A program made the position numbers and the translations under genes. Source: a virus. From it: 37,929 nucleotides of DNA. Position 1 is the stretch's first letter, and the number at the start of each line of letters is the position of its first letter. Below are positions 7,502-21,729 of the stretch, in pieces. The stretch is taken from IMG/VR virus record IMGVR_UViG_3300032219_000648; one strand, 5' to 3'. The notes under the pieces were generated by a model, which was not told the origin of the DNA, searched no databases, and saw only the letters and a list, made by a program, of their open reading frames with translations.

Positions 7502-7505
7502 TGAA

Positions 7506-7664
7506 ATGACCAACACATCAACAAGCCGAAGATTGTCTGAAGATGAAAAGCGCGGATTGATGGAGCGCGGTGTTGTCGGCACAAAAAACAATCGCATCTG
7601 GGTTGACCTAGCCCCTGCCGACACCGCCAAGTATGGTTTGCGTCGGATTGAGTGGCAACGATAA
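7506..7664 (+). CDS. Hypothetical protein, 52 aa
   Basis: ATG preceded by AAAGG. It continues the same-strand gene chain. Below the track cutoff. Confidence 0.5.
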   Translation: MTNTSTSRRLSEDEKRGLMERGVVGTKNNRIWVDLAPADTAKYGLRRIEWQR

Positions 7665-7686
7665 TTTTTTATATGGGAGAAATGAA

Positions 7687-7752
7687 ATGATCCGCCGCAT
7701 CATCAACTGGATGATTGACCGCATGTTTAAAAACGAAAAGGAGTGGTATTAA
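7687..7752 (+). CDS. Mini-ORF, 21 aa (MIRRIINWMIDRMFKNEKEWY), possible coupling/leader ORF
   Basis: GGGAGA SD 6 nt upstream. The stop overlaps the next start (TAATG at 7750-7754). Confidence 0.3.
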   Translation: MIRRIINWMIDRMFKNEKEWY

Positions 7753-8021
7753 TGAAACAGGTATTAGCAGCACAACTGGCCGAGTGGATTGCCAACAACG
7801 CACGGGGCTACACCAACCGGATCGGGAATAAAATTAAGATTGAAGGGACGATTGATGCCTACGATCTTCTCGTATATGTCCAGTCGCTCCTAGCGGAGAG
7901 AACTACAACGCAAATCCAAGCGGACAACAAAGCGTCTTACACCGGCCGGTATATCGGGACCCTCAACGGCTACCTAGATGTCAATGCTGTGGTTGAAGGT
8001 GGCGACTTTGCAGGGGATTAG
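7752..8021 (+). CDS. Hypothetical protein, 89 aa
   Basis: ATG 7752 has an AAGGAG SD 8 nt upstream. The track start at 7743 is less likely. Confidence 0.65.
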   Translation: MKQVLAAQLAEWIANNARGYTNRIGNKIKIEGTIDAYDLLVYVQSLLAERTTTQIQADNKASYTGRYIGTLNGYLDVNAVVEGGDFAGD

Positions 8022-8023
8022 TA

Positions 8024-8245
8024 ATGGACAAGATAAGGTGGCCCGACAAAGAACAAAAAGTGGACTTTGTTCCAATATTCCTGATCGGTTTCGAAGAAGA
8101 GTTCGAGCGCGGCGTAATAGTAACAACCACTGCGCATGGTATACTGAGCGAAGTTGATCCTAAGTTTGCGGTCTATGCTATAGACGCAGCGATAGACATG
8201 CTGATGCAGAAGCGCGACCAAATTGAAAAGAGGGATTTGAACTAA
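8024..8245 (+). CDS. Hypothetical protein, 73 aa
   Basis: AGGGGA SD. The stop overlaps the primase start (TAATG). Confidence 0.65.
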   Translation: MDKIRWPDKEQKVDFVPIFLIGFEEEFERGVIVTTTAHGILSEVDPKFAVYAIDAAIDMLMQKRDQIEKRDLN

Positions 8246-10719
8246 TGAAATTTAAGACACTGTATGAGGTCGGGTTCACTGACCTCGTGTCCGTTATCCC
8301 GCCGAACGCTGAATTGTCGGCCATGTCTAAAATCCAAGCGGATCAGGCAGGCAAAGCGCCCGGTCGGCAGAATGCGCAGGGCACATGGGGTGGCTATGCT
8401 TGGCAGGACTATGCGCCGACGCCCAATGACGTTGAGCGGTGGGACCGCAGCCATGCTAATATTGGCTTGAAGGCCAGCAAATATCCTGCGGTTGACATTG
8501 ATGTTGTTAACGAGGGGCTGGCTCGGGTCATTGGCGATATGGCGGTGAAGGCATTGGGCAAAGCACCTATGCGTATTGGTCGTTACCCCAAGCGCCTGTT
8601 CATGTATCGCACCGATGAAAAGATCGGCCGTATGCAGGTGCGCTTTCGTGACGGCCGGGGTGTCGAGCAGCTTGTAGAATTTCTAGGGGACGGGCAGCAA
8701 TACGTCATCGCAGGTATTCACCCTATCACTAAGGAGCCATACAGTCTCGATGTGGACTTGGAGGCACGCGGCCCGGCTGGGTTGAAGAAGGTCACGCGAG
8801 ATAAGATTGAGCGGTTCTTTGCTGATCTGACGGAGACGTTGGAGATGATGGGCTGCCAGATTATCCACGCCGACAAGACGGCGCAGAAGGCAGTCGAGCG
8901 GCAGTCGGTAGATCAGGCTTCGCTTACTGCGCCAAGCGTTGTCCATGTGGCTGCTGCCGTGACCGCAATCCCAAACAAGACCGAACACTTCCCTGACCGG
9001 GATGACTATATCCGCATGGGCTATGCCATCAAGGCGGCATGTGGCCCTGACAATGAGACGGATGCGTTCGAGATTTTCGCAGGCTGGGCCGAGCGTTGGG
9101 AAGACGGGGTTAACTCGCTCGATACTATCGAAGCAGACTTCGGCCGTATGCACCCGCCCTATGAGTTGGGTTGGGACTGGCTGGCGAACAAGGCTGCGAC
9201 CTTTGGCTATAAGCGCGAGGTCGATGAGTTCGACGTGGCGGACTTCAGCGACGAAGACTTCGGCGTGGTGGCCTCGGCTGGCGAAACGCCGATTGAGTAT
9301 AGTGACATTGCTCTCGCGCAGCGCGTTGCTCGGCTACACGTTTCGGATATCCGATACGTTGTGGGCGGCATGGGCTGGGTCGCATGGGATGGCAACAAGT
9401 GGGCTTTGGACGTGGCGAAGAAGCATGTGGCCATCGTCCGCAAGGTCTGCGCTCAAGCGTCGGCCGAAGCCTTGGAGAAGATTGAAAGCCCACAAAAGGG
9501 TGAGCGGATCGCGCAGCGTGTGGCGTCGTATAATGTCATCGCTAACGTCGCCAAGTTGGCGGCTGTCGAGCCGATGATGCAGGCGACAACCGAGCAGCTA
9601 GACGCCGACATCTATATCCTCAACACCCGGTCGGGGATGGTGGATTTGAAGACGGGGGTCTTGTTTGCGCATGACCGTTCACGCATGTGCACAAAATGCA
9701 CATCGGTCGAGGCGGACTTCAGTAAGCCTGCCCCGCAATGGCAAGCGTTTCTCAATGAGGCGTGCAACGGTGATGCTGAGATGATTTCTTACCTTCAAAG
9801 GCTGGCTGGCTATTCGGCTACGGGTAGCACCAAAGAGCATGTGCTTGCCTTCGCCCACGGCTCCGGCGGCAATGGCAAAGGAACCTTCCTCGGAGCGATA
9901 GGAAACATCCTTGGCGATTATGCCACCGTGGCCAGTGCGGACGTATTCTTGGCGTCGAACAATCAGCGTCACCCTACAGAGTTGGCGTCGTTGATGGGGG
10001 CAAGGCTCGTTCACGCGCAGGAGATTGACCCGTCGCGCAAGTGGGACGAAGCCAAGGTCAAGAGCCTGACCGGCGGGGACAAGATCAGTGCGCGGTTCAT
10101 GCGGCAGGATTTGTTTGAGTTCGAGCCGCAGTTCACGCTTGTAATCGCAGGCAATACGAAGCCAGAGATTACTAATGTGGACGATGCTATGCGTCGGCGT
10201 ATGCACCTGATCCCGTTCGAGACAAAGCCGCTCCGCAAGGACGTTGACTTGCCGGACAAGCTGAAGGAGGAATACCCGGCCATCTTGGCGTGGGTTATCG
10301 AAGGTGCGAAGGCTTGGCTGGAGCAGGGCTTAAACCCGCCGAAGGCAGTAATCCAAGCTACCGAGGATTATCTCGCAGGAGAGGACGCCTTGGCCCGCTG
10401 GATCACTGAACGCTGCGTGGCTGGCGCGGACAATGAGATGACTACCAATGAAGCGTTCAATGATTTCCGCGATTGGTGCAAGGATAATAATGAGGCCAAG
10501 GGGCGTGACTGGTCGCAGCGTAAGTTCAATGGAGAGATGAAGACGCATGGCTATGAACCCACAAGGGATCGGGCGACACGAACGAAGCGTGTGTTCCGTG
10601 GTCTTGAACTTCTCATTGGCGATGCGGACCACATGATAATAAACGCCATGATAGATGAAGGGTCGGACGATTTCTTTGGCGTTCAGATTAACTTCAAAGC
10701 AGGTGAGGGAGATGAATAA
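8245..10719 (+). CDS. Bifunctional primase-polymerase (AEP/PrimPol) fused to D5/P4-alpha-like SF3 helicase
   Basis: AEP motifs AVDIDV and IAGIHPITKEPY. PriCT-like DRDDYIRMGYAIKAACG. Walker A GSGGNGKGT and Walker B LVHAQEID. C-terminal winged-helix-like tail. Confidence 0.9.
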   Translation: MKFKTLYEVGFTDLVSVIPPNAELSAMSKIQADQAGKAPGRQNAQGTWGGYAWQDYAPTPNDVERWDRSHANIGLKASKYPAVDIDVVNEGLARVIGDMAVKALGKAPMRIGRYPKRLFMYRTDEKIGRMQVRFRDGRGVEQLVEFLGDGQQYVIAGIHPITKEPYSLDVDLEARGPAGLKKVTRDKIERFFADLTETLEMMGCQIIHADKTAQKAVERQSVDQASLTAPSVVHVAAAVTAIPNKTEHFPDRDDYIRMGYAIKAACGPDNETDAFEIFAGWAERWEDGVNSLDTIEADFGRMHPPYELGWDWLANKAATFGYKREVDEFDVADFSDEDFGVVASAGETPIEYSDIALAQRVARLHVSDIRYVVGGMGWVAWDGNKWALDVAKKHVAIVRKVCAQASAEALEKIESPQKGERIAQRVASYNVIANVAKLAAVEPMMQATTEQLDADIYILNTRSGMVDLKTGVLFAHDRSRMCTKCTSVEADFSKPAPQWQAFLNEACNGDAEMISYLQRLAGYSATGSTKEHVLAFAHGSGGNGKGTFLGAIGNILGDYATVASADVFLASNNQRHPTELASLMGARLVHAQEIDPSRKWDEAKVKSLTGGDKISARFMRQDLFEFEPQFTLVIAGNTKPEITNVDDAMRRRMHLIPFETKPLRKDVDLPDKLKEEYPAILAWVIEGAKAWLEQGLNPPKAVIQATEDYLAGEDALARWITERCVAGADNEMTTNEAFNDFRDWCKDNNEAKGRDWSQRKFNGEMKTHGYEPTRDRATRTKRVFRGLELLIGDADHMIINAMIDEGSDDFFGVQINFKAGEGDE

Positions 10720-11117
10720 TGCATAACTACGAAGAGAGACTAAGGAACTGGTCTATGACGCCTGACACTCTCGCCGCCATCCACCTAGATGCGGCGTTGT
10801 TTGGCGTTCCAGAAAATGAAATGGTTAGGCTTAAGATTGTCGGCCTGTCCAGATCGCTCAACGCGACTGCTTCAAGGGTTTACAATTTGGAAAAAGATAA
10901 CGAGTTGTCTAGGATTGCAATCTTTGGCCTAACCAAATCGCTCGATGTGGCTGCCTCACAGGTTCACAAGTTAGAAAAAGAAAACGAGTTCATGCGGGCG
11001 GAAATTAAAAAGGCACGTTGGTATCTGAAAGGGAGGGCGATATTGGTTAAATTCTTTGGGTTCCTGTCATGGTTCAGGATGTTTAAACGTGGCGAAGGCC
11101 AGCAAGAAAGGGTGTGA
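10719..11117 (+). CDS. Hypothetical coiled-coil protein with an internal 28-aa tandem duplication
   Basis: TAATG coupling and a GAGGGAG SD. Residues 39-66 and 67-94 are paralogous (IVGLSRSLNATASRVYNLEKDNE / IFGLTKSLDVAASQVHKLEKENE). Confidence 0.7.
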   Translation: MHNYEERLRNWSMTPDTLAAIHLDAALFGVPENEMVRLKIVGLSRSLNATASRVYNLEKDNELSRIAIFGLTKSLDVAASQVHKLEKENEFMRAEIKKARWYLKGRAILVKFFGFLSWFRMFKRGEGQQERV

Positions 11118-11121
11118 TGGT

Positions 11122-11415
11122 ATGTATGGGAATGATTTTATGAAATACAAAGACATTCGGGATGCGCTCAATCATGAGGTCGTCAGTGACGAGGAAGTCG
11201 ATGCGGTCAATAGCCCTCCGCACTACACGGCGGGAGGGATTGAAGCGATTGACGCCATTGAGGCCGCGCTAAGCGACGAAGGCTTTCGCGGCGCGTTGAA
11301 AGCGAATGTCCTCAAATATCTCTGGCGCTATGAAAAGAAAGCCGATCCAGTTGCGGACCTTCGCAAAGCGAGATGGTATCTTGATCGGCTGATACAAAAA
11401 GTTGAGGGGGCATAA
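11122..11415 (+). CDS. DUF3310 (SaV-like) protein
   Basis: SPPHYTAGGIEAIDAIEAAL ... ALKANVLKYLWRY ... DLRKARWYLDRL matches the DUF3310 pattern as I recall it. Confidence 0.75.
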   Translation: MYGNDFMKYKDIRDALNHEVVSDEEVDAVNSPPHYTAGGIEAIDAIEAALSDEGFRGALKANVLKYLWRYEKKADPVADLRKARWYLDRLIQKVEGA

Positions 11416-11430
11416 CGCCCCCTCTTTTTT
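11404..11430 (+). terminator. Rho-independent terminator ending the rightward early/replication operon
   Basis: GAGGGGGC (11404-11411), loop ATAAC, GCCCCCTC (11417-11424), then TTTTTT (11425-11430). It overlaps the stop of the convergent minus-strand ORF. Confidence 0.8.
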
Positions 11431-11584
11431 ATAGTGCGTTGAAGCCGACGGGCCATGCGTTGGCGGGCTTGTCGGTTTTCGTTATTTTATATTGTGAACC
11501 GCCATAGCGAATACGGGCCGTGCGTTCGTTCTCGTATATGCCGACGGACCGACCCGTCTTGAGGTTGGTGACTTCGTAGTTCAT
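11429..11584 (-). CDS. Hypothetical protein, 51 aa (MNYEVTNLKTGRSVGIYENERTARIRYGGSQYKITKTDKPANAWPVGFNAL)
   Basis: AGGGAAG SD 5 nt upstream and its own sigma70-type promoter at 11641-11669. Below the track cutoff. Confidence 0.6.
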   Translation of the reverse strand: MNYEVTNLKTGRSVGIYENERTARIRYGGSQYKITKTDKPANAWPVGFNAL

Positions 11585-11640
11585 ATTTTCTTCCCTTTTA
11601 AAAAGCGGTCGGAGGGTTGGCCCTCTCGATCCGCGTTTGC

Positions 11641-11669
11641 ATTATGGAACAATGTTCCGGTCTTGTCAA
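11641..11669 (-). promoter_or_regulatory. Sigma70-type promoter TTGACA-N17-CATAAT with a GGAAC-N3-GTTCC operator in the spacer
   Basis: On the minus strand: TTGACA (11669-11664), a 17-nt spacer, CATAAT (11646-11641). The palindrome GGAACAATGTTCC (11646-11658) fills the spacer. A 10-bp palindrome CTAATATTAG lies just upstream (11673-11682). Confidence 0.6.
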
Positions 11670-11715
11670 GTGCTAATATTAGGGCCGAAGTGGACCTAAC
11701 TTGGCTTGAGATAAA

Positions 11716-12001
11716 ATCCGTGCACGGTTTGAGAGGGTCCGTGCATGGTTGGTGCACGGTTTAGGGCCGGATAAAATGGCTGAAATCTAAGGATGTGCCG
11801 GAAGTGCACGGTTTAAAAAAGTTAATCCGCTCTTACGACAGTAACAGTGTTAGAAGTGGTCATATTACAATGTTACTTACTTATGGGAACCAATGCGCCG
11901 ACAAACCGTGCACTCCGTGCACATTGGCGGAAATGCGTGGGTAAACCCGGCCCTAAACCCGGCCCGAACCGTGCACGGAGATATGCAAACCGTGCACGGA
12001 T
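11716..12001. repeat. 286-bp modular imperfect palindrome (axis 11858/11859) built from GTGCACGG(TTT) and other boxes around an AT-rich core
   Basis: Mirrored box pairs: 11716-11730/11987-12001 (15/15), 11738-11750/11967-11979 (12/13), 11758-11770/11947-11959 (13/13), 11793-11798/11919-11924 (6/6), 11801-11814/11903-11916 (13/14), 11841-11850/11867-11876 (9/10). The spacers between boxes match at only 2-5 of 10 positions. Confidence 0.9.
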
Positions 12002-12013
12002 GGCAGTTTTCCG

Positions 12014-12541
12014 TTAATCGTCGTCAAAAACACCCGGCAAGTCGTCCGCATCGAGGTTATGAGAGCCGACTTGCTTGGTTGGTGTGATGTCGATGACTTC
12101 TGGTTCATCGGCGTCGAGGGTATGTGGATTTGATGACGCCAAGTTTAGCTGGCGCAGTGCATCAAGGTGGAGTTGGTTCACGTTGACTTGGACCGCTGTG
12201 GTCGGCTTGGCTTGGAACTTCTCTGGTGCTGCAACGCCAGCCAGCCACTTGCGTGTTTCAATCTTGAGCCTGTCAGCATTGGCCGATGTGTTGTCCGAGG
12301 CATCGGCAATGTCGAGGCACTCATCTGCCCATTGGTCAGCCGCGATTGCCCGCGCCTGTTTAAACCGCTCCTCCCGATCCGGGTCTTTGCGTATCCAATG
12401 ATAGAGCGACAGGTTGCTGATGTTCAATTCACGAGCGAGGCCAGCCATTGTCAGGCCGGAAGCAATCTTCTCCAGCAGAACAGTCTCGCCAACCTTATCT
12501 AAGTTTGACGCAATCGTGCGCCGTTTAATATGTCCAGCCAT
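12014..12541 (-). CDS. terS: Terminase small subunit, Sf6 gp1-like
   Basis: HTH region GLTMAGLARELNISNLSLYHWIRKDPDREERFKQARAIAADQWADECLDIADAS ... RLKIETRKWLAGVAAPEKF parallels Sf6 gp1 (FRWLAKHEDFRDKYAKATEARAD...IADNA...RLRVDTRKWALARMNPRKYG) as I recall it. AAGGA SD. Confidence 0.75.
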   Translation of the reverse strand: MAGHIKRRTIASNLDKVGETVLLEKIASGLTMAGLARELNISNLSLYHWIRKDPDREERFKQARAIAADQWADECLDIADASDNTSANADRLKIETRKWLAGVAAPEKFQAKPTTAVQVNVNQLHLDALRQLNLASSNPHTLDADEPEVIDITPTKQVGSHNLDADDLPGVFDDD

Positions 12542-12552
12542 GTCTTATCCTT

Positions 12553-12597
12553 TATATGCCTCTAGAAGCCCATATAAAGCCCATAGAGAGGCATATA
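12553..12597. promoter_or_regulatory. 11-bp inverted repeat in the HTH-terS intergenic gap
   Basis: TATATGCCTCT (12553-12563) and AGAGGCATATA (12587-12597) with a 23-nt loop containing GCCCATA twice. It ends 6 nt from the terS SD on the minus-strand transcript. Confidence 0.5.
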
Positions 12598-12629
12598 GGG
12601 CGATTGCTAGGTAACTATCCCGATTGTAG

Positions 12630-12809
12630 CTATGCACGCTCCAGACCCCTTAAAAACGTCTCTAAGAGGATAGAGACTGGAGCGGGGACTGAACGGCCAC
12701 CTTGTTCATAGTATCTGATCGACCTTTCGGACAGTCCTATCTTGTAGGCAAGCTGCCCTTGCGTTAGCTTCAGCCTCTCGCGTGTTGCTTTAAATTCTTC
12801 ACTTGTCAT
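12630..12809 (-). CDS. Cro/XRE-family helix-turn-helix protein, 59 aa
   Basis: LKLTQGQLAYKIGLSERSIRYYEQGGRSVPAPVSILLE is a canonical HTH_3 pattern. ATGA-coupled to the upstream ORF. Below the track cutoff. Confidence 0.75.
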   Translation of the reverse strand: MTSEEFKATRERLKLTQGQLAYKIGLSERSIRYYEQGGRSVPAPVSILLETFLRGLERA

Positions 12810-12976
12810 TTGCTTTGTTCCTCAAGTCCGCGCCGGATGCCCTGCTCAACGAGGCGCATCCAGATTGTGTGGTCCCAACCGCCGGACAGATATAGCTGCC
12901 CATCGCTGTTGTCCTGCTTTTCGCATTGAGCCGCGCAAATTTGCCGTGCGGCGTGTGTTATTTCTTTATCGGTCAT
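12806..12976 (-). CDS. Hypothetical protein, 56 aa
   Basis: ATGA overlaps at both ends and an AAGGA SD. Below the track cutoff. Confidence 0.55.
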   Translation of the reverse strand: MTDKEITHAARQICAAQCEKQDNSDGQLYLSGGWDHTIWMRLVEQGIRRGLEEQSK

Positions 12977-13176
12977 GCTTCATCCTTTAGCGCCTTTTCG
13001 GCGTCCTCAATTAATTCGATGGGTGGGTAGCGCAGATAGGACACATGGTCTTTGCCTATCACGCCAAGCATCTCAAGAAACTCCATCAAGCGATAGGCCA
13101 AGGTTTCCCCGGCCCGTTCGATGTATCGTTCGGGCAGTGCCAATTCGTCGTCCTCATCGTCGTCGTAGTAGGTCAT
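12973..13176 (-). CDS. Strongly acidic hypothetical protein, 67 aa
   Basis: MTYYDDDEDDELALPE... By my count 19 D/E versus 7 K/R. ATGA overlaps at both ends. Confidence 0.65.
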   Translation of the reverse strand: MTYYDDDEDDELALPERYIERAGETLAYRLMEFLEMLGVIGKDHVSYLRYPPIELIEDAEKALKDEA

Positions 13177-13310
13177 TTGCTTTGTTCCTTTTCACGTTCT
13201 GCGCGGCGTTCGGCAAAGGTCTTGCCATCGAGGCCGCGCAGCGGCCAAGCATCGTCTGACGATACGCGGTGGTTCCGGCCCATTGGCGCGGCTTGCTGTG
13301 GTTTAATCAT
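13173..13310 (-). CDS. Hypothetical protein, 45 aa
   Basis: The start at 13310 is preceded by the conserved cassette CAAAAGGAGCATAAC. The track start at 13367 lacks an SD. Confidence 0.5.
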   Translation of the reverse strand: MIKPQQAAPMGRNHRVSSDDAWPLRGLDGKTFAERRAEREKEQSK

Positions 13311-13330
13311 GTTATGCTCCTTTTGTTTTG

Positions 13331-13759
13331 TTAAACTATTTCCAGGCCATTGCCGCCGGATTGCCAAGGGATATTGCGAAACTTGAACGATCCGCCGTTC
13401 TGACCGACAAGGCGGTATACTGGCACTGAATAACGGCTTACTTGGTCAAAGCCGCACAATTCAAAATGACTAGGCCATTCGATAACGTCCGCATAATCGG
13501 CCAGTCGCTTTGCGTAGCGTTTGCTTTGCAGAAGCTTGATGCCGCTGTCGTGCAACTCGCCGACAACTTTAGGGCAGTCGCGGTCAATCATGGCAAGCGC
13601 CAGATATATATCATCACCCGCTGCCCTAGGGCAGGTCGCGCTAACCGATAGTCCGGCGCGGCGGCGACCCTCGGCGTTGAGGGCTTTGCGTAAGCCAATG
13701 ATGTTTGTTTTCGTGACGCTGCCGCTGGCGATTGCGTCAATATGTTTTTGGAATGTCAT
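13331..13759 (-). CDS. Hypothetical protein, 142 aa
   Basis: The start at 13759 is preceded by the identical CAAAAGGAGCATAAC cassette. No motif recognised. Confidence 0.7.
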   Translation of the reverse strand: MTFQKHIDAIASGSVTKTNIIGLRKALNAEGRRRAGLSVSATCPRAAGDDIYLALAMIDRDCPKVVGELHDSGIKLLQSKRYAKRLADYADVIEWPSHFELCGFDQVSRYSVPVYRLVGQNGGSFKFRNIPWQSGGNGLEIV

Positions 13760-13760
13760 G

Positions 13761-13958
13761 TTATGCTCCTTTTGCTTTAGTGATTGCGGTTTCGATGGTG
13801 TCGCGGACATCCATCCATTCGGCGCGGTCAGTGTAGCCGCTCTTGCGAATGTATGCGGATGCCGCTTCTAGCGCCAACAACAAGTCAGGCGCGGCATCGT
13901 GCATCAGTTTGCGGCGGCGGTTGCGCTCTTGCGCGGCGGCGTAGTAATCAAAAGCCAT
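13761..13958 (-). CDS. Hypothetical protein, 65 aa
   Basis: Start preceded by GAGGGAAGCATAAC. Predicted helical with a basic centre. Confidence 0.65.
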   Translation of the reverse strand: MAFDYYAAAQERNRRRKLMHDAAPDLLLALEAASAYIRKSGYTDRAEWMDVRDTIETAITKAKGA

Positions 13959-13959
13959 G

Positions 13960-14049
13960 TTATGCTTCCCTCACTGTTTCAATGATTGCGTAGATCGATA
14001 GGGCCAAGACGCCCCAAAAGAATGCGTTGATTGCTATGTGGGCTGTCAT
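13960..14049 (-). CDS. 29-aa single-pass membrane peptide (MTAHIAINAFFWGVLALSIYAIIETVREA)
   Basis: ATGA overlap with the upstream stop. Hydrophobic core of about 20 aa. Below the track cutoff. Confidence 0.4.
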   Translation of the reverse strand: MTAHIAINAFFWGVLALSIYAIIETVREA

Positions 14050-14315
14050 GCTGCATCCGCTTCCATCATGTCGGCGTGATGTTCTGCCAGTGCGTCCCAA
14101 TCGACGCTGTTAAGGTCGAGCATATCCCAGATGAACCCTGCGCCTGTGCTTTCAAACCCAATAAATTCTCCAACGTAATTCTCAACGCTGTCGCGGCAAT
14201 ATTCTGGAGTAACATCTACACCGTCTTCGGTAGCTAAAGCCCAGCCATCGCCGAACCATAGGTTTACAGTCCAAGTGGCTGCATTGCGCCATCCGTTGCA
14301 TGAAATATCTGTCAT
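14046..14315 (-). CDS. Acidic hypothetical protein, 89 aa
   Basis: NGWRNAATWTVNLWF motif. About 18 D/E versus 2 K/R. Preceded by the conserved 39-nt leader with an AGGAG SD. Confidence 0.7.
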   Translation of the reverse strand: MTDISCNGWRNAATWTVNLWFGDGWALATEDGVDVTPEYCRDSVENYVGEFIGFESTGAGFIWDMLDLNSVDWDALAEHHADMMEADAA

Positions 14316-14396
14316 AGTTTCTCACTCCTATTATTGGCACTAGCGCCATAAATGCCGCGCAAGGTTAGTTGCGCGGCTAATATGGTGTTAGGCTGC
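14311..14396. repeat. Intergenic junction cassette, copy A (stop context, GC hairpin, 39-nt conserved leader)
   Basis: 14311-14349 matches 14542-14579 with a single 1-nt indel. Hairpin GCCGCGCAA/TTGCGCGGC at 14354-14377. GGTGTTAGGCTGC at 14384-14396 recurs at 14609-14621. Confidence 0.85.
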
Positions 14397-14546
14397 AAGC
14401 CATTCGTCATATGACAGCAGCGGTTGCCCGTTGCGGGTTATGTCGCCGCCCTTGCCGTCATTCGCGCACGATAGATAAATCTGATACTCGCTATCGTTGT
14501 CGCCGCGATAGCTGGTCTGCCAGAATTGTTCACGTTCAGTAGTCAT
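14388..14546 (-). CDS. Hypothetical protein, 52 aa
   Basis: Preceded by copy B of the conserved leader (AGGAG SD). Ends with AA-stop like the upstream gene. Below the track cutoff. Confidence 0.55.
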   Translation of the reverse strand: MTTEREQFWQTSYRGDNDSEYQIYLSCANDGKGGDITRNGQPLLSYDEWLAA

Positions 14547-14621
14547 AGTTTCTCACTCCTTTATTGGCACTAGCGCCATCCTCGCGGCGGATTGCTCCGC
14601 CGTCCGGTGGTGTTAGGCTGC
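14542..14621. repeat. Intergenic junction cassette, copy B
   Basis: Same architecture as 14311-14396. Hairpin GCGGCGGA-TTGC-TCCGCCG at 14584-14602. Confidence 0.85.
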
Positions 14622-14963
14622 TTCTCCCCATGCGATTGCAGCTTGCGTCCGAACATGTGGTGGCAAACATTGCAGCTTACAGGCGATATTGAGAGCGATT
14701 ACCATTGTGCCACAATCAGAGCCAATAAAGAGCGCCTTCTCGTATGGCGTCATATCATCCCGGCCGATGATGTCGTATGCGCTCAGACAGGCCTTAAATG
14801 ACGCCATGGCACCTTGACGCGCTCTCTCATTAGGGGTGAGCATGGCAGACGTATCGTGCACCTCCGCCTGTTGAATTAGGGCTGTGCGGAATGTTTCATC
14901 ATGGCAGACTATCGACCGTTCAATGATGTCGCGGGCTGTCGGATTGGCTGGCAAACTATACAT
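14613..14963 (-). CDS. Hypothetical protein, 116 aa
   Basis: ATG 14963 has an AGGAG SD 8 nt upstream. The track start at 14972 is a GTG abutting the SD. Confidence 0.7.
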   Translation of the reverse strand: MYSLPANPTARDIIERSIVCHDETFRTALIQQAEVHDTSAMLTPNERARQGAMASFKACLSAYDIIGRDDMTPYEKALFIGSDCGTMVIALNIACKLQCLPPHVRTQAAIAWGEAA

Positions 14964-14985
14964 ATTATTCACTCCTATTGGTTGG

Positions 14986-15159
14986 TTAAAGCACGTTCAA
15001 ACGAGCGCGGGCAGCATCTTCTTTTTCTGCCCATGTCTTAAGGCGAAGCAGCTTGGCGATCAGTCTGTCGCGCTCGTTATTGGCATGGGTGTCGGTGGAT
15101 TTTTCACCAGCCAATATGCCTGCAAGATAGGCAGCTTCTGTTTGCGTTAGATATTCCAT
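14986..15159 (-). CDS. Hypothetical protein, 57 aa
   Basis: ATG 15159 has an AAGGAGAG SD. The track start at 15192 is less likely. Confidence 0.6.
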   Translation of the reverse strand: MEYLTQTEAAYLAGILAGEKSTDTHANNERDRLIAKLLRLKTWAEKEDAARARLNVL

Positions 15160-15160
15160 G

Positions 15161-15274
15161 TTACTCTCCTTCTTTATCGTTACGACTAGCAAATGCTAAA
15201 CCAGCCAACATGCAAACAACCCATATGAATGCAAACACATTGAATGGAATATACTGTGATAAATCAAAAGCCAT
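15161..15274 (-). CDS. 37-aa membrane peptide (MAFDLSQYIPFNVFAFIWVVCMLAGLAFASRNDKEGE), first gene of the leftward early operon
   Basis: AGAGGGA SD 6 nt upstream. Hydrophobic core. Below the track cutoff. Confidence 0.45.
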   Translation of the reverse strand: MAFDLSQYIPFNVFAFIWVVCMLAGLAFASRNDKEGE

Positions 15275-15304
15275 TGTCAGTCCCTCTTTGCTATTGAGGT
15301 GTTA

Positions 15305-15435
15305 ACAATAGGAACATTGTTCTGGTTAGTAAAAATATATAATTTTATTGATTGGTAAAAAATAGTAACCAATCAAATCACATTAGAATGTGAATTGCCT
15401 CACCCTATAATATAATTGTGCAGGAACATGGTTCC
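15305..15435. promoter_or_regulatory. Divergent early control region with two GGAAC-N3-GTTCC operator copies and candidate leftward/rightward promoters
   Basis: O2 is GGAACATTGTTCT (15311-15323), lying inside a minus-strand TTACTA-N16-TATTGT. O3 is GGAACATGGTTCC (15423-15435), just downstream of a plus-strand TTAGAA-N17-TATAAT (15383-15411). The AT-rich core carries TTGATTGGT-N11-ACCAATCAA (15348-15376). Confidence 0.45.
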
Positions 15436-15511
15436 GCTTTATGGTGGTGGATAGAGAGCGCCGGGTTTCGTTTCTTGCGCGTCTCCGAACCCATTCGGTC
15501 GCATACTAATA

Positions 15512-15743
15512 CACTGTTACAGTCTGAAACCCGCAGAAATGCGTTAGTTTTTGAGCCGGGGAGGGGTGGTGGCATTTAAATTTGACCCCCCCCGCCCCGG
15601 TCTTGCGCGGGGGGCGCGTGCGCACAACCTGACAGACATCGAGGTGTGCCCCCACCCCCCGTACTCCTTTATTTTTGATCCCCCAGCCAAAAAAAATTTC
15701 TAACTTTTTGCTTGCCAAGTTGTAACAATAGAGTGTAACAGTG
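15512..15743. repeat. 13/14 inverted repeats bracketing a 204-bp structured, homopolymer-rich noncoding segment upstream of the recombinase
   Basis: CACTGTTACAGTCT (15512-15525) versus the reverse complement of AGAGTGTAACAGTG (15730-15743). The interior has an imperfect hairpin at 15556-15600 with an ATTTAAAT loop, plus C8, G6, C5, C6 and A8 runs and the palindrome GTGCGCAC. Confidence 0.6.
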
Positions 15744-15771
15744 ATGCACAACAACAAACGGGAGAAATACG

Positions 15772-16452
15772 TTGGCAGTTTATGGATACACTCGCGTCTC
15801 GACTGAAGACCAGATTGAGAACACATCGCTCGATGATCAAGCCCGCCAAATCCAAGGCATCGCGCTCACACATAATTTGGAACTGGACCATATATATGAA
15901 GAGCGTGGCGTCTCTGGCGGCGTCCCGCTGCTCCGCCGAGAAGAAGGCTGCAAGCTGGCGTTCCTACGGCCGGGCGATACCGTCATCGTATCGAAGCTGG
16001 ACCGTATGTTTCGCGATGCGAGAGACGCACTAAACGTGATTGCCGACTGGGAGACGGCGAACATTAATCTCATCATCAACGGCTACGGCAATGTGATGGA
16101 CAAGGCCAACCCGAACGGCCGCTTCATGCTAGAGATCATGGCCGTCTTCGCCGGGGAAGAGCGCCGCCGTATCAGAGAACGTGTCACCGCCGGTAAGAGA
16201 GCCAAGCGTTCGCAGGGCGGATATGTCGGCGGCAAAGTGCCATTTGGGTTTAAGAAGTCAGGCACAGGCCGCAAGGCCAAGCTGCACCCAGAACCAAATG
16301 CGCAGGACGCGCTAATTACAATGAAAGCCGCACGCGTTAAAGGTCATAGCTACCGCGATATTGCTATTATCGTAGCAAAGCGTCATGGTATATCAGTTAG
16401 CCATCAAACAATCGCACGCGTAATCCGGGGAGATAAGAATGACGAAATCTGA
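15772..16452 (+). CDS. Small serine recombinase (resolvase/invertase family) with C-terminal HTH
   Basis: YGYTRVSTEDQ (catalytic Ser), VSKLDRMFRD, EERRRIRERVTAG, and C-terminal HTH SYRDIAIIVAKRHGISVSHQTIARVIR. TTG start with a GGGAGA SD. The 3' end overlaps terL by 14 nt. Confidence 0.9.
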   Translation: MAVYGYTRVSTEDQIENTSLDDQARQIQGIALTHNLELDHIYEERGVSGGVPLLRREEGCKLAFLRPGDTVIVSKLDRMFRDARDALNVIADWETANINLIINGYGNVMDKANPNGRFMLEIMAVFAGEERRRIRERVTAGKRAKRSQGGYVGGKVPFGFKKSGTGRKAKLHPEPNAQDALITMKAARVKGHSYRDIAIIVAKRHGISVSHQTIARVIRGDKNDEI

Positions 16453-17848
16453 GCCGAACTTCTTTTTAGAGTTCCTGAAGAAATACCGCGATGATCCTGT
16501 AGGGTTCGTGCGGGATATTCTGAGAACTAAGCCAGACCCTTGGCAAGTCGAGTTTCTGAAAGCGATCAGCGCCGGGAACCGTCGTATTTCCGTTCGCTCA
16601 GGCCACGGCGTCGGCAAATCGACAGCCGCAAGCTGGGCCATGCTGCATTACTTTCTGACGCGGTATCCGGTAAAGGTCGTTGTGACTGCGCCGACATCCG
16701 CACAGTTGTTCGATGCGATGTTCGCGGAACTGAAGCGATGGGTGAATGAACTGCCCGAAGTGCTGAAGGTTCTGATCGAAGTCAAGACCGACCGTATTGA
16801 ATTGAAGGCCGCAGCCAGTGAAGCCTTTATCTCCGCCAGAACGAGCCGAGCAGAAACGCCAGAAGCCTTGCAGGGTATCCACGCCGACAACGTGCTGCTC
16901 GTCGCAGACGAAGCGTCCGGTATTCCCGAAAGTGTGTTTGAAGCTGCGTCCGGTTCTATGTCCGGTCACAATGCGACGACGCTTCTTCTGGGCAACCCAA
17001 CGCGAAACACTGGATTATTCTACGATACGCACAACCGCTTAAAGGGTGAATGGAAGACCTTCCACGTTAGCTGCCTCGACAGCCCACGCGTATCCGATGC
17101 GTTCGTCCGAGAGATGCAGTTGCGGTACGGCGAAGACAGCCCGGCCTACCATGTCCGTGTCCTTGGTAACTTCCCGCCGCGTGAAGAAGATACCGTCATC
17201 CCGGTCGAGTTGATCGACAGCGCCATGAACCGCGAGATTAAGATCGCCAAGCAAACGAAAAGTGTGTGGGGCCTAGACGTGGCGCGTATGGGTTCCGACG
17301 CTTCCGCCCTCGCCAAGCGGCGTGGGCCGGTCGTTGAGGAGATACAGACTTGGAAAGGTCTGGACCTAATGCAGCTAACCGGCGCAGTCGTAGCCGAGTT
17401 TGAGGCGCTGCCGCCATCGGAACAGCCGGTCGAGATATTGGTCGATAGCATCGGGTTGGGGGCGGGTGTGCTTGACCGTCTGCGCGAACTGGGTCTGCCA
17501 GCGCGAGGGATCAACGTGGCGGAAAGCCCCGCGCTGAAAGGAACTTACGCCAACCTACGCGCCGAGTTGTGGTTCAAATGCAAAGGGTGGCTGGCGAACC
17601 GCGATGTTAAGATACCGAAGGATGAGCAGTTGTTCGCCGAGTTGGCGTCACCGCGCTACACCTTTACCTCGTCGGGCAAGATGCAGGTGGAGAGCAAGGA
17701 GAGTATGAAGAAGCGCGGGCTTCCGTCACCAGACAAGGCGGACGCTTTGTGTCTATGTCTGGCCACCGACCTGTCAACGATTATGCACGGATATTCGATG
17801 GCCAACAAGTCCGGCGCGTTGCGTCGAAATATAAAAGGTGTAGTTTGA
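16439..17848 (+). CDS. terL: Terminase large subunit
   Basis: Walker A-like RSGHGVGKST, Walker B LLVADEASGI, and nuclease-domain acidic motifs (WGLDVARMGSD, ILVDSIGLG, SPDKADAL). Confidence 0.9.
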   Translation: MTKSEPNFFLEFLKKYRDDPVGFVRDILRTKPDPWQVEFLKAISAGNRRISVRSGHGVGKSTAASWAMLHYFLTRYPVKVVVTAPTSAQLFDAMFAELKRWVNELPEVLKVLIEVKTDRIELKAAASEAFISARTSRAETPEALQGIHADNVLLVADEASGIPESVFEAASGSMSGHNATTLLLGNPTRNTGLFYDTHNRLKGEWKTFHVSCLDSPRVSDAFVREMQLRYGEDSPAYHVRVLGNFPPREEDTVIPVELIDSAMNREIKIAKQTKSVWGLDVARMGSDASALAKRRGPVVEEIQTWKGLDLMQLTGAVVAEFEALPPSEQPVEILVDSIGLGAGVLDRLRELGLPARGINVAESPALKGTYANLRAELWFKCKGWLANRDVKIPKDEQLFAELASPRYTFTSSGKMQVESKESMKKRGLPSPDKADALCLCLATDLSTIMHGYSMANKSGALRRNIKGVV

Positions 17849-18019
17849 CATAAATAAAAGATGTGATATATTTGTCTTGCTCGGCAGGTTTTTCTCTCCC
17901 TCTTGCCTGCCGAGTGTCTTGGGTGCTAAGGGGTGTGCGCGGCGGGTTTCGCCGATAATAGCGACTAAACAAAGATGCCTACTCCCGTCTCTTGTTCAAA
18001 ACGCCGCCACCCCGATTTT

Positions 18020-18048
18020 TTGCTTTTCCACAAATTTTAGGCTATAGG
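18020..18048 (+). promoter_or_regulatory. Candidate sigma70-type promoter TTGCTT-N17-TATAGG upstream of the endonuclease VII gene
   Basis: TTGCTT 18020-18025, 17-nt spacer, TATAGG 18043-18048. GGGAG SD 7 nt before GTG 18069. Confidence 0.35.
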
Positions 18049-18068
18049 CGTCCGTAGGGAGCGAACCC

Positions 18069-18491
18069 GTGGAAACAAAGACTTGTGTGACATGCGGCGG
18101 AGAGAAGCCCCTTGATGACTTTTACCCCCGAAGACGCTCCTGTAAGTCATGCGTGCGCGAACACCAACGCCGTTTCAGAAACGCCCAGCCAGACTATAAC
18201 CGCGCTCACAATCTCCAAAAGCGTTATGGTATAAGCGTCGATGAGTATAAAACTCTCCTCGCCAACCATAATTTTGCTTGCGCTATTTGTAAGGTAGAAA
18301 TACCTGACGCATTAGGTTATAAGGGCGGAGGATCAGGTGTCGTAGATCATAACCACGAAACGGGTGATGTGCGCGGCATATTATGTTCAAAGTGTAATTT
18401 AGTTCTTGGCCACGCACGAGAGAGTACGGATATTCTTTATCAGGCCATTGTGTACTTGAGTGAGCGCGGCGCGTATACGCCAAAGAAATAG
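18069..18491 (+). CDS. Endonuclease VII family (T4 gp49-like / HNH-related) nuclease
   Basis: CAICKVE...VVDHNHETGDVRGILCSKCNLVLG is the Endonuclease_7 signature. N-terminal CxxC...CxxC zinc ribbon. GTG start. Confidence 0.85.
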   Translation: METKTCVTCGGEKPLDDFYPRRRSCKSCVREHQRRFRNAQPDYNRAHNLQKRYGISVDEYKTLLANHNFACAICKVEIPDALGYKGGGSGVVDHNHETGDVRGILCSKCNLVLGHARESTDILYQAIVYLSERGAYTPKK

Positions 18492-18501
18492 GTTTGATTG
18501 C

Positions 18502-18792
18502 ATGGTTGCGAAGCGTTTTCAAAATCCGAAGGGCGGCCTCAATGCAGCGGGGCGTAGCCACTTCAAGAAGACCGAAGGGGCCAACTTGAAAGCGCCTGTT
18601 AAATCAGGGGATAATCCACGGAGGGCATCATTCTTAGCGCGTATGGGCAATATGCCGGGGCCGGAGCGTAATGCGAAAGGCGAACCAACCCGCCTTCTCT
18701 TATCTCTGCAAGCGTGGGGTGCGTCATCTAAAGCAGACGCGAAGTCCAAAGCCAAAGCCATATCAGCCCGAAACAAGGGGAAGTCAAAATGA
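18502..18792 (+). CDS. Small basic protein, 96 aa (KGGLNAAGR...NLKAPV...PRRASFLARM family)
   Basis: I recall this conserved pattern from small proteins of aquatic phages. ATG 18502. The track start at 18460 overlaps the upstream gene. Confidence 0.6.
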   Translation: MVAKRFQNPKGGLNAAGRSHFKKTEGANLKAPVKSGDNPRRASFLARMGNMPGPERNAKGEPTRLLLSLQAWGASSKADAKSKAKAISARNKGKSK

Positions 18793-18941
18793 AGATGGGT
18801 CTATACAGCAACATCGCGGCCAAGAAGGCACGGATAAAAGCTGGTTCTGGCGAAAAGATGCGTAAGCCGGGGACGAAAGGCGCTCCTACTGCGGCCGCAT
18901 TTAAGGCTGCCGCGAAAACCGCAAAGGGTAAAAAGAAATGA
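18789..18941 (+). CDS. Small Lys/Ala-rich basic protein, 50 aa
   Basis: ATGA overlaps at both ends. MKMGLYSNIAAKKARIKAGSGEKMRKPGTKGAPT... Below the track cutoff. Confidence 0.55.
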   Translation: MKMGLYSNIAAKKARIKAGSGEKMRKPGTKGAPTAAAFKAAAKTAKGKKK

Positions 18942-19114
18942 AGAAACCTACTAAGGCCGACAAGAAGATTGCTAAGGTCATGGGCGAATATAAGCGTGGC
19001 ACATTGCACGCTGGCGTGAACCCTAAAGGCCCCGCAAAGGCTCCCTTGGCTAAATCGCGTAAACAGGCTATAGCTATTGCCCTGTCCGAAGCTGGAAAGT
19101 CGAAAAAGAAATAA
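18938..19114 (+). CDS. Small basic protein, 58 aa (DUF6496-like SRKQAIAIALSEA motif)
   Basis: KVMGEYKRGTLHAG...KSRKQAIAIALSEAGK. ATGA and TAATG coupling. Below the track cutoff. Confidence 0.6.
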   Translation: MKKPTKADKKIAKVMGEYKRGTLHAGVNPKGPAKAPLAKSRKQAIAIALSEAGKSKKK

Positions 19115-19377
19115 TGGAGACACAAAAGTTTCTAGGCCGAAATGAATTGGTTGACAGACTTGCTGCGCAAGTTGGCGACCGGGACATGGCTATAGGGCTT
19201 TTGATTAAAAACGGGCTTATGACCACCGATGGTAAGTTAACCGCCAAAGGCCATGCCCGTAATGCTATGACCGCAGAAGAGCGTGCAGTTGACCGCGCTG
19301 TAAAGCGTAGTGGTAAAAATCACGGGGATTATGTATATGATCCTCGTACTAACCGCGCTACATTACGGAAGAGATAG
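19114..19377 (+). CDS. Hypothetical protein, 87 aa
   Basis: TAATG coupling. Lies immediately upstream of portal. Confidence 0.65.
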   Translation: METQKFLGRNELVDRLAAQVGDRDMAIGLLIKNGLMTTDGKLTAKGHARNAMTAEERAVDRAVKRSGKNHGDYVYDPRTNRATLRKR

Positions 19378-19380
19378 TAA

Positions 19381-21729
19381 ATGGCATATCGCAATAACCG
19401 CAAGCCGACTAAGGATCAGATGGCTAAGAACAACCGTATGTATCAGGATACGGGTGTTCCCAACGCCAACTCTGAAAACGACGACAGCGAAGATATGTCT
19501 AAGGAAACCGAGATTGAACTTCCCGATGGCACGGAAGTTTCTATCGAAGAACCTGAAATGGAAGACGAGCAGGTAGAAGACCCTGTATCGGAAGAAGAAC
19601 TTCAGAACATTATCACCGCCGAGATTGACGACGCGCAGGATTATATCGACGATGTGATCTCGCCAGAGCGTGCGCTTGCGGGCCAGTATTATAAGGGCGA
19701 ACCTTTCGGCAACGAAGAGGAAGGCCGGTCGCAGGCTATCTCGATGGATGTACGGGATACTGTACAGGCCATGATGCCGTCGATCATGAAAGTATTTTTC
19801 GCGGCGAACAACGTCGTCGAGTTCGCGCCGAACGGCCCAGAAGATGTTGACAGTGCGCAGCAAGCGACGGATTACGTCAACTACTGCCTGACACGCGACA
19901 ACAACCTATTCAATGAATGCTACTCCACATTCAAGGACGCATTGATCCGTAAGAACGGTATCATGAAAGTTTGGTGGAATACCGAGAAGGATGTCACGAC
20001 CCACTACTTCACGGGTCTGGACGAAGCTACCTTCTCGGTTCTTCAGGCCGATGAGAATATCGAAGTTAAGGACGTAGAAATTCGCATGAGCGAAACTATG
20101 ACCATGACGCCGATGGGCGAAATGATGCAGCAGACGCCGCCCACTTATGACTGCACCGTTGTCCGCACCACGGAGAAGGGCCGCCTGTGCGTCCAGTCCG
20201 TACCGCCCGAAGAGTTTCTGATTGACCGCCGTGCGCGTTCTATTGAGACAGCCGAGTTTGTAGCCCACCGTCGCTACGTCACCGTATCCGATCTCGTGAA
20301 GATGGGCTACGAGTGGGACGAGGTTCAAGACCTTGGCTTCGAAACGCTTGATGACTTTGAAGGCAACCAAGAAGCCTTTGATCGTAACCCGCAAGCATTC
20401 GTTCAGATCACCGGCCGCACAGATACGACATCGCGCAAAGTCCTTTATATTGAGGGCTATGTGTATGTTGACATGGACGGCGACGGGATCGCGGAACTTT
20501 GCCGCGTCTGCGTTGCTGGCACGGCCAACAAGATACTTCACTACGAACCCTGCGACTTTATTCCGTTCGTAGACTTCTGCCCTGATCCAGAGCCGCACAC
20601 ATTCTTCGGTATGTCGATTGCCGACGTGACGATGGACATTCAGCTTATCAAGTCGAATATCCTGCGCAACACGCTGGACAGCTTGGCCCAGTCTATCCAC
20701 CCACGCACGGGTGTCGTTGAAGGCCAAGTCAATCTCGAAGACGTGATGAACACCGAAGTCGGTGGCATCATTCGTATGCGTGCACCGGGAATGGTGCAGC
20801 CGTTCACGATGCCGTTCGTTGGGCAGCAAGCCTTCCCGATGTTGCAGTATATGGATGAACTGCGCGAGAACCGCACAGGTATTTCCAAGGCCGCGTCTGG
20901 CCTCGATGCGAATGCGCTTCAGTCTTCGACCCGCGCTGCTGTCGCGGCCACGATTACTGCTGCGGCGCAACATATCGAACTGATCTGCCGTATCTTCGCC
21001 GAGACGGGCATGAAGGGTCTGTTCCGCAAGTCGTTGCAGCTTATCATCAAGAACCAAGATGCTCCGCGCATGGTGCGTCTGCGCAATACGTTCGTGCCGA
21101 TTGACCCACGGGTATGGGACGCGAATATGGATGTCGTCGTCAATGTCGCTATCGGGACTGGTAGCAACGAAGAGAAGATGGCGTTCTTAGGCCAAGTCGC
21201 CGCCAAGCAAGAGATGCTGATGCAGATGGGCGCTCCATTGGCGGACATGCAGGGTTACTATAATACGTTAGCTCAGATGATGGCGCTGGCTGGGTTTAAA
21301 GACCCGACCGTGTTCTTCAAAGACCCGGCCATGATGCCGCCTCCGCCACCACCTGCACCACCGCAGCCGACACCGGAAGAGATGCTGTCTCAGGTTCAGA
21401 TGGAAGCAATCCGCGCTGACATCCAGAAGAAGGCGGCTGAACTTGAGTTGCAGCGCGAAGAGATGCTGCGCAAGGACGACCGTGAGCGCGACAAACTCGA
21501 CGCCGATCTGATGATTAAGGCCGCTGAGATTGAAGCCAAGTATGGCACGCAGGTTAACACGGCCAACATCGAAGCGTTGATGCAGCGCGACCGCGAGTTC
21601 CTACGCCAGCAAGGCGAGATGGATCGTGCGGCGGTGCAAGCTGCACAAGCCGCGCAGAATGCACAGATGGCGCAAGCGGTTCAGCAAGCGCAGATGCAAC
21701 CTGAAATGCCACCAGAAGGAATGATGTGA
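19381..21729 (+). CDS. Portal protein
   Basis: 782 aa, placed between the terL cluster and scaffold/capsid. ALAGQYYKGEPFGNEEEGRSQAISMDVRDTV is portal-like. Q/A-rich coiled C-terminus. Confidence 0.8.
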   Translation: MAYRNNRKPTKDQMAKNNRMYQDTGVPNANSENDDSEDMSKETEIELPDGTEVSIEEPEMEDEQVEDPVSEEELQNIITAEIDDAQDYIDDVISPERALAGQYYKGEPFGNEEEGRSQAISMDVRDTVQAMMPSIMKVFFAANNVVEFAPNGPEDVDSAQQATDYVNYCLTRDNNLFNECYSTFKDALIRKNGIMKVWWNTEKDVTTHYFTGLDEATFSVLQADENIEVKDVEIRMSETMTMTPMGEMMQQTPPTYDCTVVRTTEKGRLCVQSVPPEEFLIDRRARSIETAEFVAHRRYVTVSDLVKMGYEWDEVQDLGFETLDDFEGNQEAFDRNPQAFVQITGRTDTTSRKVLYIEGYVYVDMDGDGIAELCRVCVAGTANKILHYEPCDFIPFVDFCPDPEPHTFFGMSIADVTMDIQLIKSNILRNTLDSLAQSIHPRTGVVEGQVNLEDVMNTEVGGIIRMRAPGMVQPFTMPFVGQQAFPMLQYMDELRENRTGISKAASGLDANALQSSTRAAVAATITAAAQHIELICRIFAETGMKGLFRKSLQLIIKNQDAPRMVRLRNTFVPIDPRVWDANMDVVVNVAIGTGSNEEKMAFLGQVAAKQEMLMQMGAPLADMQGYYNTLAQMMALAGFKDPTVFFKDPAMMPPPPPPAPPQPTPEEMLSQVQMEAIRADIQKKAAELELQREEMLRKDDRERDKLDADLMIKAAEIEAKYGTQVNTANIEALMQRDREFLRQQGEMDRAAVQAAQAAQNAQMAQAVQQAQMQPEMPPEGMM

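Follow-up and report, generated by a model that had tools for sequence, protein, structure and literature searches.

Phage accessory regions are variable hotspots, rich in counter-defence genes, that lie between conserved flanks (bioRxiv 10.1101/2023.04.06.535777). In acr-aca operons, a small helix-turn-helix (HTH) gene (aca) comes last, directly after the acr genes (PMC8633003, PMC9410906). Here, we analyse a block of twelve small open reading frames (ORFs; o1 to o12 in reading direction) at positions 12630–15274 on the minus strand of IMG/VR virus record IMGVR_UViG_3300032219_000648, a stretch of 37,929 nucleotides (nt) that we refer to as the window. An earlier note, made from the sequence alone, had read this block as an early operon that ends in an HTH gene, with the layout of an acr-aca operon, and as a candidate island of anti-defence and host-takeover functions. 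On balance, we think it probable that the block is a hotspot of exchangeable cassettes on a scaffold linked to the small terminase subunit gene (terS), with counter-defence as the leading candidate function of its cargo. The window has a 123-bp terminal direct repeat (1–123 and 37807–37929), which means that it is complete, as either a circularly assembled or a terminally redundant genome. It is the genome, ~37.8 kb long, of an uncultured freshwater podovirus-like phage. Isolated phages showed no DNA similarity to the small-gene block, in near or distant search mode, and the best matches to TerL are only 56–62% identical.

Related loci were retrieved by searching IMG/VR with the TerS protein (175 amino acids, aa) as query, which returned 80 loci. 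The genes of 57 complete arrays were re-called, and clustering of their products gave 75 protein families. When window positions 3500–21000 (17.5 kb) were compared with 11 relatives that have 8 kb of sequence on either side, the largest synteny gap within this span was found at 12750–15250. These comparative data bear out the island proposed in the earlier note in so far as they reveal a hypervariable accessory region. Around it, terL and a serine recombinase gene lie on one strand and, across a spacer of ~500 bp, the small-gene array and terS lie on the opposite strand. The recombinase gene was found in 51 loci, 42 of which also had terL. Across loci with both genes the layout (recombinase–terL, then o1 to the HTH gene and terS in divergent orientation) was constant, with no inverted variants; inversion of the terS block by the serine recombinase was rejected, as every such locus has the same orientation. 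The features of the region are listed below from the control region leftwards, with the ratio of non-synonymous to synonymous substitution (dN/dS) calculated across relatives by the Nei–Gojobori method:

15275–15771, no strand: divergent control region between the serine recombinase/terL operon (plus strand) and the small-gene/terS unit (minus strand)
15311–15323 and 15423–15435: dyad-symmetric sites of the GGAACANNGTTC type, also GGAACANNGTTC(C)
15378–15393 (TCACATTAGAATGTGA) and 15352–15372: dyad-symmetric sites
15161–15274, minus strand: o1, 37 aa, single-pass membrane micro-protein, conserved first gene; 56 of 57 arrays; dN/dS 0.16
14986–15159, minus strand: o2, 57 aa; 5 of 57 arrays; dN/dS 0.12
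14613–14963, minus strand: o3, 116 aa; 3 of 57 arrays; dN/dS 0.07
14388–14546, minus strand: o4, 52 aa; in the window only among the 57 arrays; 39-nt direct repeat at both junctions
14046–14315, minus strand: o5, 89 aa, acidic, DUF7249; 11 of 57 arrays; dN/dS 0.21
13960–14049, minus strand: o6, 29 aa, membrane micro-peptide; 5 of 57 arrays; dN/dS 0.38 (4 sequences)
13761–13958, minus strand: o7, 65 aa, phrog_1273 (E 7e-6); 10 of 57 arrays; dN/dS 0.47
13331–13759, minus strand: o8, 142 aa, basic; in the window only among the 57 arrays; 23-nt direct repeat at both junctions
13173–13310, minus strand: o9, 45 aa, basic, near-core; 50 of 57 arrays; dN/dS 0.22
12973–13176, minus strand: o10, 67 aa, acidic, helical, near-core; 49 of 57 arrays; dN/dS 0.16
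12806–12976, minus strand: o11, 56 aa; 6 of 57 arrays; dN/dS 0.19
12630–12809, minus strand: o12, 59 aa, Cro/XRE-type HTH, core; 57 of 57 arrays; dN/dS 0.12
12542–12629, minus strand: o12–terS spacer, every codon position conserved; holds a perfect inverted repeat with arms of 11 bp (12553–12563 and 12587–12597)
12014–12541, minus strand: terS, 175 aa, Sf6-type small terminase subunit, conserved distal gene
11404–11424, bidirectional: intrinsic terminator with an 8–9-bp stem, depending on the strand, 7 G–C pairs and T-runs on both strands

The twelve minus-strand ORFs are present as the earlier note had described them; seven are shorter than 60 aa, and no ORF of this block matches a known enzyme family. 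Seven junctions are coupled, four by ATGA overlaps (o5|o6, o9|o10, o10|o11 and o11|o12) and three by TAA-C-ATG (o1|o2, o6|o7 and o7|o8), and the remaining four are spacers of 20–72 nt. Purine-rich Shine–Dalgarno sequences, often made of the last codons of the preceding gene, are found at 11 of the 12 starts; o6, which overlaps o5, has a weaker one. Ten ORFs (all but o4 and o8) have dN/dS values of 0.07–0.47, indicating purifying selection, and an independent gene caller had called 11 of the 12 on the source scaffold, a metagenome scaffold of 37,861 bp with the same gene content as the window (ENA ERZ28594536, scaffold_175). As dN/dS is low in ten ORFs, o4 and o8 belong to large families and the independent calls agree, the twelve ORFs are, by these coding measures, real genes.

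Comparison of the arrays separates a conserved set of genes from variable ones. A minimal array of o1–o9–o10–o12–terS is seen, for example, in L009, L016, L032, L040 and L046. Between o1 and o9, arrays hold anything from nothing to ~2 kb, with the slot directly after o1 being the most variable, and further slots lie at o9|o10, o10|o12 and o12|terS. The o9 and o10 genes always occur as a pair, and o12 (median identity 91% among relatives) is always directly upstream of terS. We propose that o1, the o9–o10 pair, o12 and terS would form a fixed scaffold, and that the slots between them would hold interchangeable, translationally coupled cassettes, represented in the window by o2–o8 and o11. The whole unit would run leftward over ~3.9 kb, starting in the control region and continuing through the small genes into terS.

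The boundaries of the cassettes suggest how they may have been exchanged. Breakpoints between relatives lie exactly at stop/start junctions, and the 513 junctions in the arrays include 179 ATGA overlaps and 70 single-nt gaps, which leave no room for structured recombination sites. In the window, direct repeats of 23 nt (D7) and 39 nt (D10/D11) bracket o8 and o4, respectively. An 18-nt repeat (D13) occurs at o9|o10 and o11|o12, flanking o10–o11, and a 33-nt repeat (D4, 73% identity) occurs at o5|o6 and o10|o11, flanking o6–o10. In the mechanism that we propose, the last codons of a cassette would encode the Shine–Dalgarno sequence of the next gene, and the resulting junction sequences of 18–39 nt would recur as direct repeats. 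We infer that cargo moved by recombination between these short homologous junctions and that selection then kept recombinants with intact coupling. The accessory region would in this way exploit the promoter of an essential packaging gene, together with its translation flow.

By sequence comparison, the cargo is drawn from a gene pool that is common to unrelated phages. For o4, there are 150 relatives in IMG/VR (60–96% identity among the 80 kept), nearly all of them without the terS or terL of this lineage nearby and sometimes beside other island families. Homologues of o8 form 149 representative clusters in a library of 1.84 billion proteins, and the two that were inspected lie in small-gene arrays after divergent junctions, on unrelated contigs of 43–60 kb. 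No Pfam or PDB match was found for o8, and its longer homologues bring no further Pfam domains. For o2, Pfam, PHROGs, NCBIfam and PADLOC gave no family matches, and for o3 there was none in these four or in PDB. In relatives, o11 is positioned before or after o10. The earlier note's two membrane micro-peptides are seen in o1 and o6, each of which has one strongly hydrophobic stretch of 19 residues (peak hydropathy 2.25 and 2.12, respectively). On one unrelated phage contig of 43.6 kb (L166, 5001–6276), a pentapeptide-repeat protein of 170 aa, from a fold class in which some members act as DNA mimics, is encoded two genes downstream of an o8 homologue.

Two methyltransferases, one Dam (PF05869, E 3e-30) and one of phrog_757, are among the cargo of sister arrays that can be assigned to families, along with GP88/DUF7227 proteins and a DnaA-C-terminal HTH. 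The phrog_757 cassette lies inside the small-gene island in L020, L033, L073 and L080. A homologue of 200 aa at 5613–6215 of the window shares 83% identity with the L080 island cassette; it sits in a second variable spot and is absent from the 11 long relatives. Orphan methyltransferases are the only cargo class for which a role in counter-defence is obvious. As sister arrays carry such orphan DNA methyltransferases, the gene content points weakly to counter-defence as the leading candidate for the cargo, which would most likely target the host or competing elements. That the eight cassettes of the window itself have such a function is a reasonable guess, drawn only from their context. A bolder proposal, to which we attach limited credence, is that the island serves as a store of novel anti-defence or host-takeover families, in which at least one widespread cassette would neutralise a bacterial defence system by a mechanism without structural precedent; the candidates would be o5/DUF7249, o4 and o8. 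If so, cargo linked to terS would be expressed in every infection. The synteny comparison also showed smaller gaps at 7250–7750, 10750–11750 and 18500–19400, further accessory spots that belong to the replication and head modules.

Several points weigh against a terS-linked cassette hotspot with counter-defence cargo. The methyltransferase argument is one of guilt by association, taken from sister genomes. The ORFs of the block match no known anti-defence, defence or host-takeover family in Pfam, PHROGs, NCBIfam, PADLOC or PDB: PHROGs gave families of unknown function only (o5 and o7), Pfam gave DUF7249 (o5) and HTH (o12), and NCBIfam and PADLOC gave only generic HTH matches to o12. Sequence and profile searches of PDB with o3, o5, o8, o10, o12 and the families F26 and F42 returned nothing meaningful, and no literature was found on DUF7249, DUF7227 or GP88. 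Co-transcription of terS is deduced from the lack of a conserved terminator or promoter in the 88-nt gap before it. Upstream of o1, no sigma-70 promoter of at least 9/12 was found, the best candidate being an 8/12 match by eye (TTTACT, 17 nt, TATTGT). The recognition helix of o12 did not covary with the dyad variants, as the helix is nearly invariant whereas the dyads vary. Finally, a host assignment through genome contigs was set aside as too weak, with one 6.8-kb contig binned with an Arenimonas metagenome-assembled genome.

Where the unit ends bears directly on its nature. The earlier note had the block end at the HTH gene; however, terS lies 88 nt downstream of o12, with no conserved terminator before it. 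The terS product matches PF20901 (Sf6_terminase domain) above the Pfam threshold (E 2e-16, 60.4 bits, cut-off 27) and phrog_1482 (E 4.6e-15). It is 86–97% identical in the 80 loci (dN/dS 0.09) and was called in 55 of the 57 arrays, terS itself having been the search query. The inverted repeat in the o12–terS spacer forms a hairpin in both the minimum free energy and the centroid fold, directly before the terS ribosome-binding site and with no U-tract after it; this hairpin could exert translational control of terS. Transfer RNA and Rfam scans gave no match that reached the gathering score, and the only match with E<=1 was a far sub-threshold IS128. In some relatives, the spacer holds a 213-bp insert that encodes a hydrophobic protein of 72–78 aa (family F15, dN/dS 0.27). 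Two other calls were rejected: a 30-aa ORF with a GTG start (12545–12637), which is unlikely to be a gene (dN/dS 0.64, and a low proportion of synonymous differences, pS, of 0.19), and family F7, a wrong-frame call (dN/dS 3.3). In most relatives, a weak terminator-like hairpin within o12 (12677–12658) has lost its T-run (TTTCT), and mismatches in the stem are uncompensated. The first strong stop for leftward transcription is the bidirectional terminator at 11404–11424, and we predict that the unit most likely delivers terS and ends there. Early timing, as assumed in the earlier note, finds no support: terS, one of the genes of the unit, has a late function, and no canonical sigma-70 promoter was found upstream of o1. 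That terS belongs to the unit speaks at least against exclusively early expression.

The region downstream of terS has several features of its own. Ten copies of CCGTGCAC lie on both strands at 11716–12001 (11 in the whole window, compared with 1.7 expected) and form a 55-nt inverted repeat (arms 11716–11770 and 11947–12001) immediately after terS. This array could be a pac or TerS-binding region; the copy number of GTGCAC among relatives ranges from 0 to 8. A sigma-70-like promoter on the minus strand (TTGACA-17-CATAAT, 11/12, 11669 to 11641), among the two best in the first 19 kb, precedes a 51-aa ORF (11584–11429) that ends at the bidirectional terminator. A GGAACAATGTTCC dyad sits in the spacer/-10 region of this promoter.

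The linkage to terS would also be expected of a late packaging operon, in which o9, o10 and o12 would serve terS (pac recognition, control of terminase assembly) and the cassettes would be neutral or selfish morons. Here, terS is the conserved distal gene, o9, o10 and o12 are conserved along with it, the unit diverges from the terL/structural operon via one common, highly conserved control region, and a pac-like CCGTGCAC repeat array follows terS. On the scaffold genes, a packaging operon and the cassette hotspot overlap, and they differ on the cargo only. Seven arrays lack o9 and o10, which means that both are dispensable for packaging, and the cassettes are under purifying selection and kept in unrelated phages, which means that they are not junk. 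The methyltransferase cargo, moreover, has an obvious counter-defence use. We regard the packaging operon as rather unlikely, and retain the hotspot of cassettes on a terS-linked scaffold.

The acidic proteins raise another possibility. As the earlier note had reported, o5 has 18 aspartate or glutamate residues (D/E) against 2 lysine or arginine residues (K/R), and o10 carries a DDDEDDE run; for o10 the full count is 19 D/E against 7 K/R. With net charges of -16 (o5) and -12 (o10) and an isoelectric point (pI) of ~4.1 for each, they might be anti-restriction proteins of the Ocr/ArdA kind, that is, DNA mimics. Such mimics have charge in common rather than fold, so that missing homology does not exclude a protein from the class. 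The AlphaFold2 model of o5 is confident (predicted local distance difference test score, pLDDT, of 85.5) and shows a small helical domain with four helices, but Foldseek found no match at E<1 in PDB, which includes Ocr and ArdA. In BFVD, the model matched uncharacterised phage proteins only. The family match of o5 is PF23907 (DUF7249, E 1.2e-6), and its most conserved positions are aromatic or polar (C6-N7-G8-W9-R10-N11, W15, W20 and F21), not acidic. A match of o5 to SSM1 (E 7.5e-4), the C-terminal end of a haloacid dehalogenase (HAD) phosphatase, was judged spurious.

In o10, the body is helical with 25 invariant residues, whereas the acidic run lies in an N-terminal tail that varies in length and is the least conserved part. 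Its AlphaFold2 model (pLDDT 61) was too poor for a fold search, and a profile search of PDB found no relative. Neither o5 nor o10 has a Pfam match to the Ocr/ArdA families, and the PDB profile searches with both returned no mimic. All o10 homologues among the 120 matches listed are at least 65% identical. From its distribution and conservation, o10 is best described as a lineage-restricted near-core gene, not variable cargo, and its pairing with o9 suits the role of a fixed partner more than that of an inhibitor in an arms race. The charge argument of the earlier note thus finds no homology or fold support, and acidity alone leaves DNA mimicry as an improbable functional analogy.

The HTH assignment of o12 holds (HTH_31 and HTH_3, E ~1e-7 in Pfam); its position as the terminal gene does not, as terS follows on the same strand. 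In a PDB sequence search, its nearest solved relative is Cro of phage 434, at a marginal E of 0.0097. The control region upstream of o1, measured over 44 related loci, is at many positions conserved as well as or better than the flanking genes. In many relatives, the o1 ATG is preceded at 49 and ~160 nt by dyads of the form GGAAC..GTTCC, in which half-sites change symmetrically (e.g., GGCAC...GTGCC). Over the whole window, 9 occurrences of the motif compare with 2.2 expected. A third dyad, of the GGAACANNGTTC(C) form, is found at 11646, within the sigma-70-like promoter (11/12) downstream of terS. It is plausible from this pattern that the dyads are operators, and o12 would most likely be a transcriptional regulator that acts at dyad-symmetric GGAACANNGTTCC sites. 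The other side of terL has a sigma-70-like promoter as well: right after its stop codon, an extended -10 promoter (TTGACA-16-TATATT, with TG, 11/12) at 17845–17872 lies ahead of an Endonuclease_7-domain gene (18069–18491) and the portal gene.

Small genes of no known function upstream of a 59-aa HTH gene, together with dyad-symmetric sites at conserved positions in the upstream control region, are what an acr-aca-type operon would show. The small genes would then be anti-CRISPRs or similar, and o12 an Aca-like autorepressor that shuts a strong promoter after early expression. However, o12 is not last: terS is next on the same strand, with no conserved terminator, and the two genes are neighbours in 57 of 57 arrays irrespective of the cargo, minimal arrays included. 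Its PDB sequence matches at E<=0.01 include no solved Aca, only 434 Cro, and its recognition helix does not covary with the dyads. No cassette matches the anti-CRISPR models of NCBIfam and Pfam, and there was no Acr match in PHROGs or PDB. The layout on which the earlier note relied is thereby lost, and we consider an acr-aca operon very unlikely.

The serine recombinase gene (15772–16452; 226 aa, Resolvase domain, TTG start) overlaps the start of terL by 14 nt, and both products are 97% identical across relatives. The control region, which contains a G/C-rich palindrome at 15553–15602, may hold the recombinase's site. An integron-like platform, in which this divergent recombinase inserts promoterless cassettes site-specifically behind a fixed promoter and leader, would fit a conserved recombinase (97% aa identity) that faces away from the variable array across a highly conserved region, and a first slot, directly after o1, that is the most variable, but its chances are negligible, since most junctions are 4-nt overlaps or 1–3-nt gaps, too short to hold attC-like sites, the repeats at the junctions are not the same in different slots and no common recombination site is found, there are at least four separate variable slots, cassettes follow a largely syntenic order in which one slot may hold alternative 'alleles', and the overlap with terL puts the recombinase in the structural operon, where a role as integrase or resolvase is likelier.

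In an abundant lineage of uncultured freshwater phages, the cassette hotspot is an accessory region with clear limits, in which scaffold and cargo are cleanly separable. The 75 small protein families are now catalogued, and several are spread over unrelated phages. Accessory regions are the best place to look for novel counter-defence and host-takeover proteins, and the DUF7249, o4 and o8 families are concrete candidates whose size is tractable. For annotation, a small HTH gene after small genes is no evidence of acr-aca if a terminase gene comes next. The practical value is limited, as the cargo lacks functional homology.

How does this locus compare with the systems known from other phages? 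Like Ocr and ArdA, o5 and o10 are small and strongly acidic (pI ~4), but they show no sequence or fold similarity, and their conservation lies on aromatics (o5) or on the helical body (o10). With acr-aca operons, the block has in common small genes of no known function before a small HTH gene, and inverted repeats upstream. Unlike in those operons, terS comes after the HTH gene, the HTH gene is core even without cargo, and no Acr or Aca homology was detected. Like small terminases of the Sf6 gp1 type (PF20901), TerS has an N-terminal HTH-containing TerS domain, and a repeat-rich candidate recognition region adjoins its gene; unlike in that type, terS is not directly upstream of terL but closes a small-gene array on the other strand, 3.9 kb from terL.

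The lambdoid nin and ea/b regions are gene-precise mosaics of small genes with short boundary sequences. They resemble the block in their packed, translationally coupled small ORFs and in exchange at gene boundaries via short common junctions, and differ in that they belong to another phage lineage and another genomic position, whereas the block is terS-linked. Compared with phage accessory regions, the block is unusual in lying inside a unit that delivers terS, in having scaffold genes interleaved among several slots, and in carrying no cargo with a demonstrated or homology-inferred counter-defence function. In common with them, it has conserved flanks (o1, o9–o10 and o12–terS) around small genes that vary among close relatives, cargo that is horizontally common with unrelated phages, and orphan methyltransferases among that cargo. 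Judged by its gene arrangement, the locus shows the defining structural features of a phage accessory region, which is the closest known kind.

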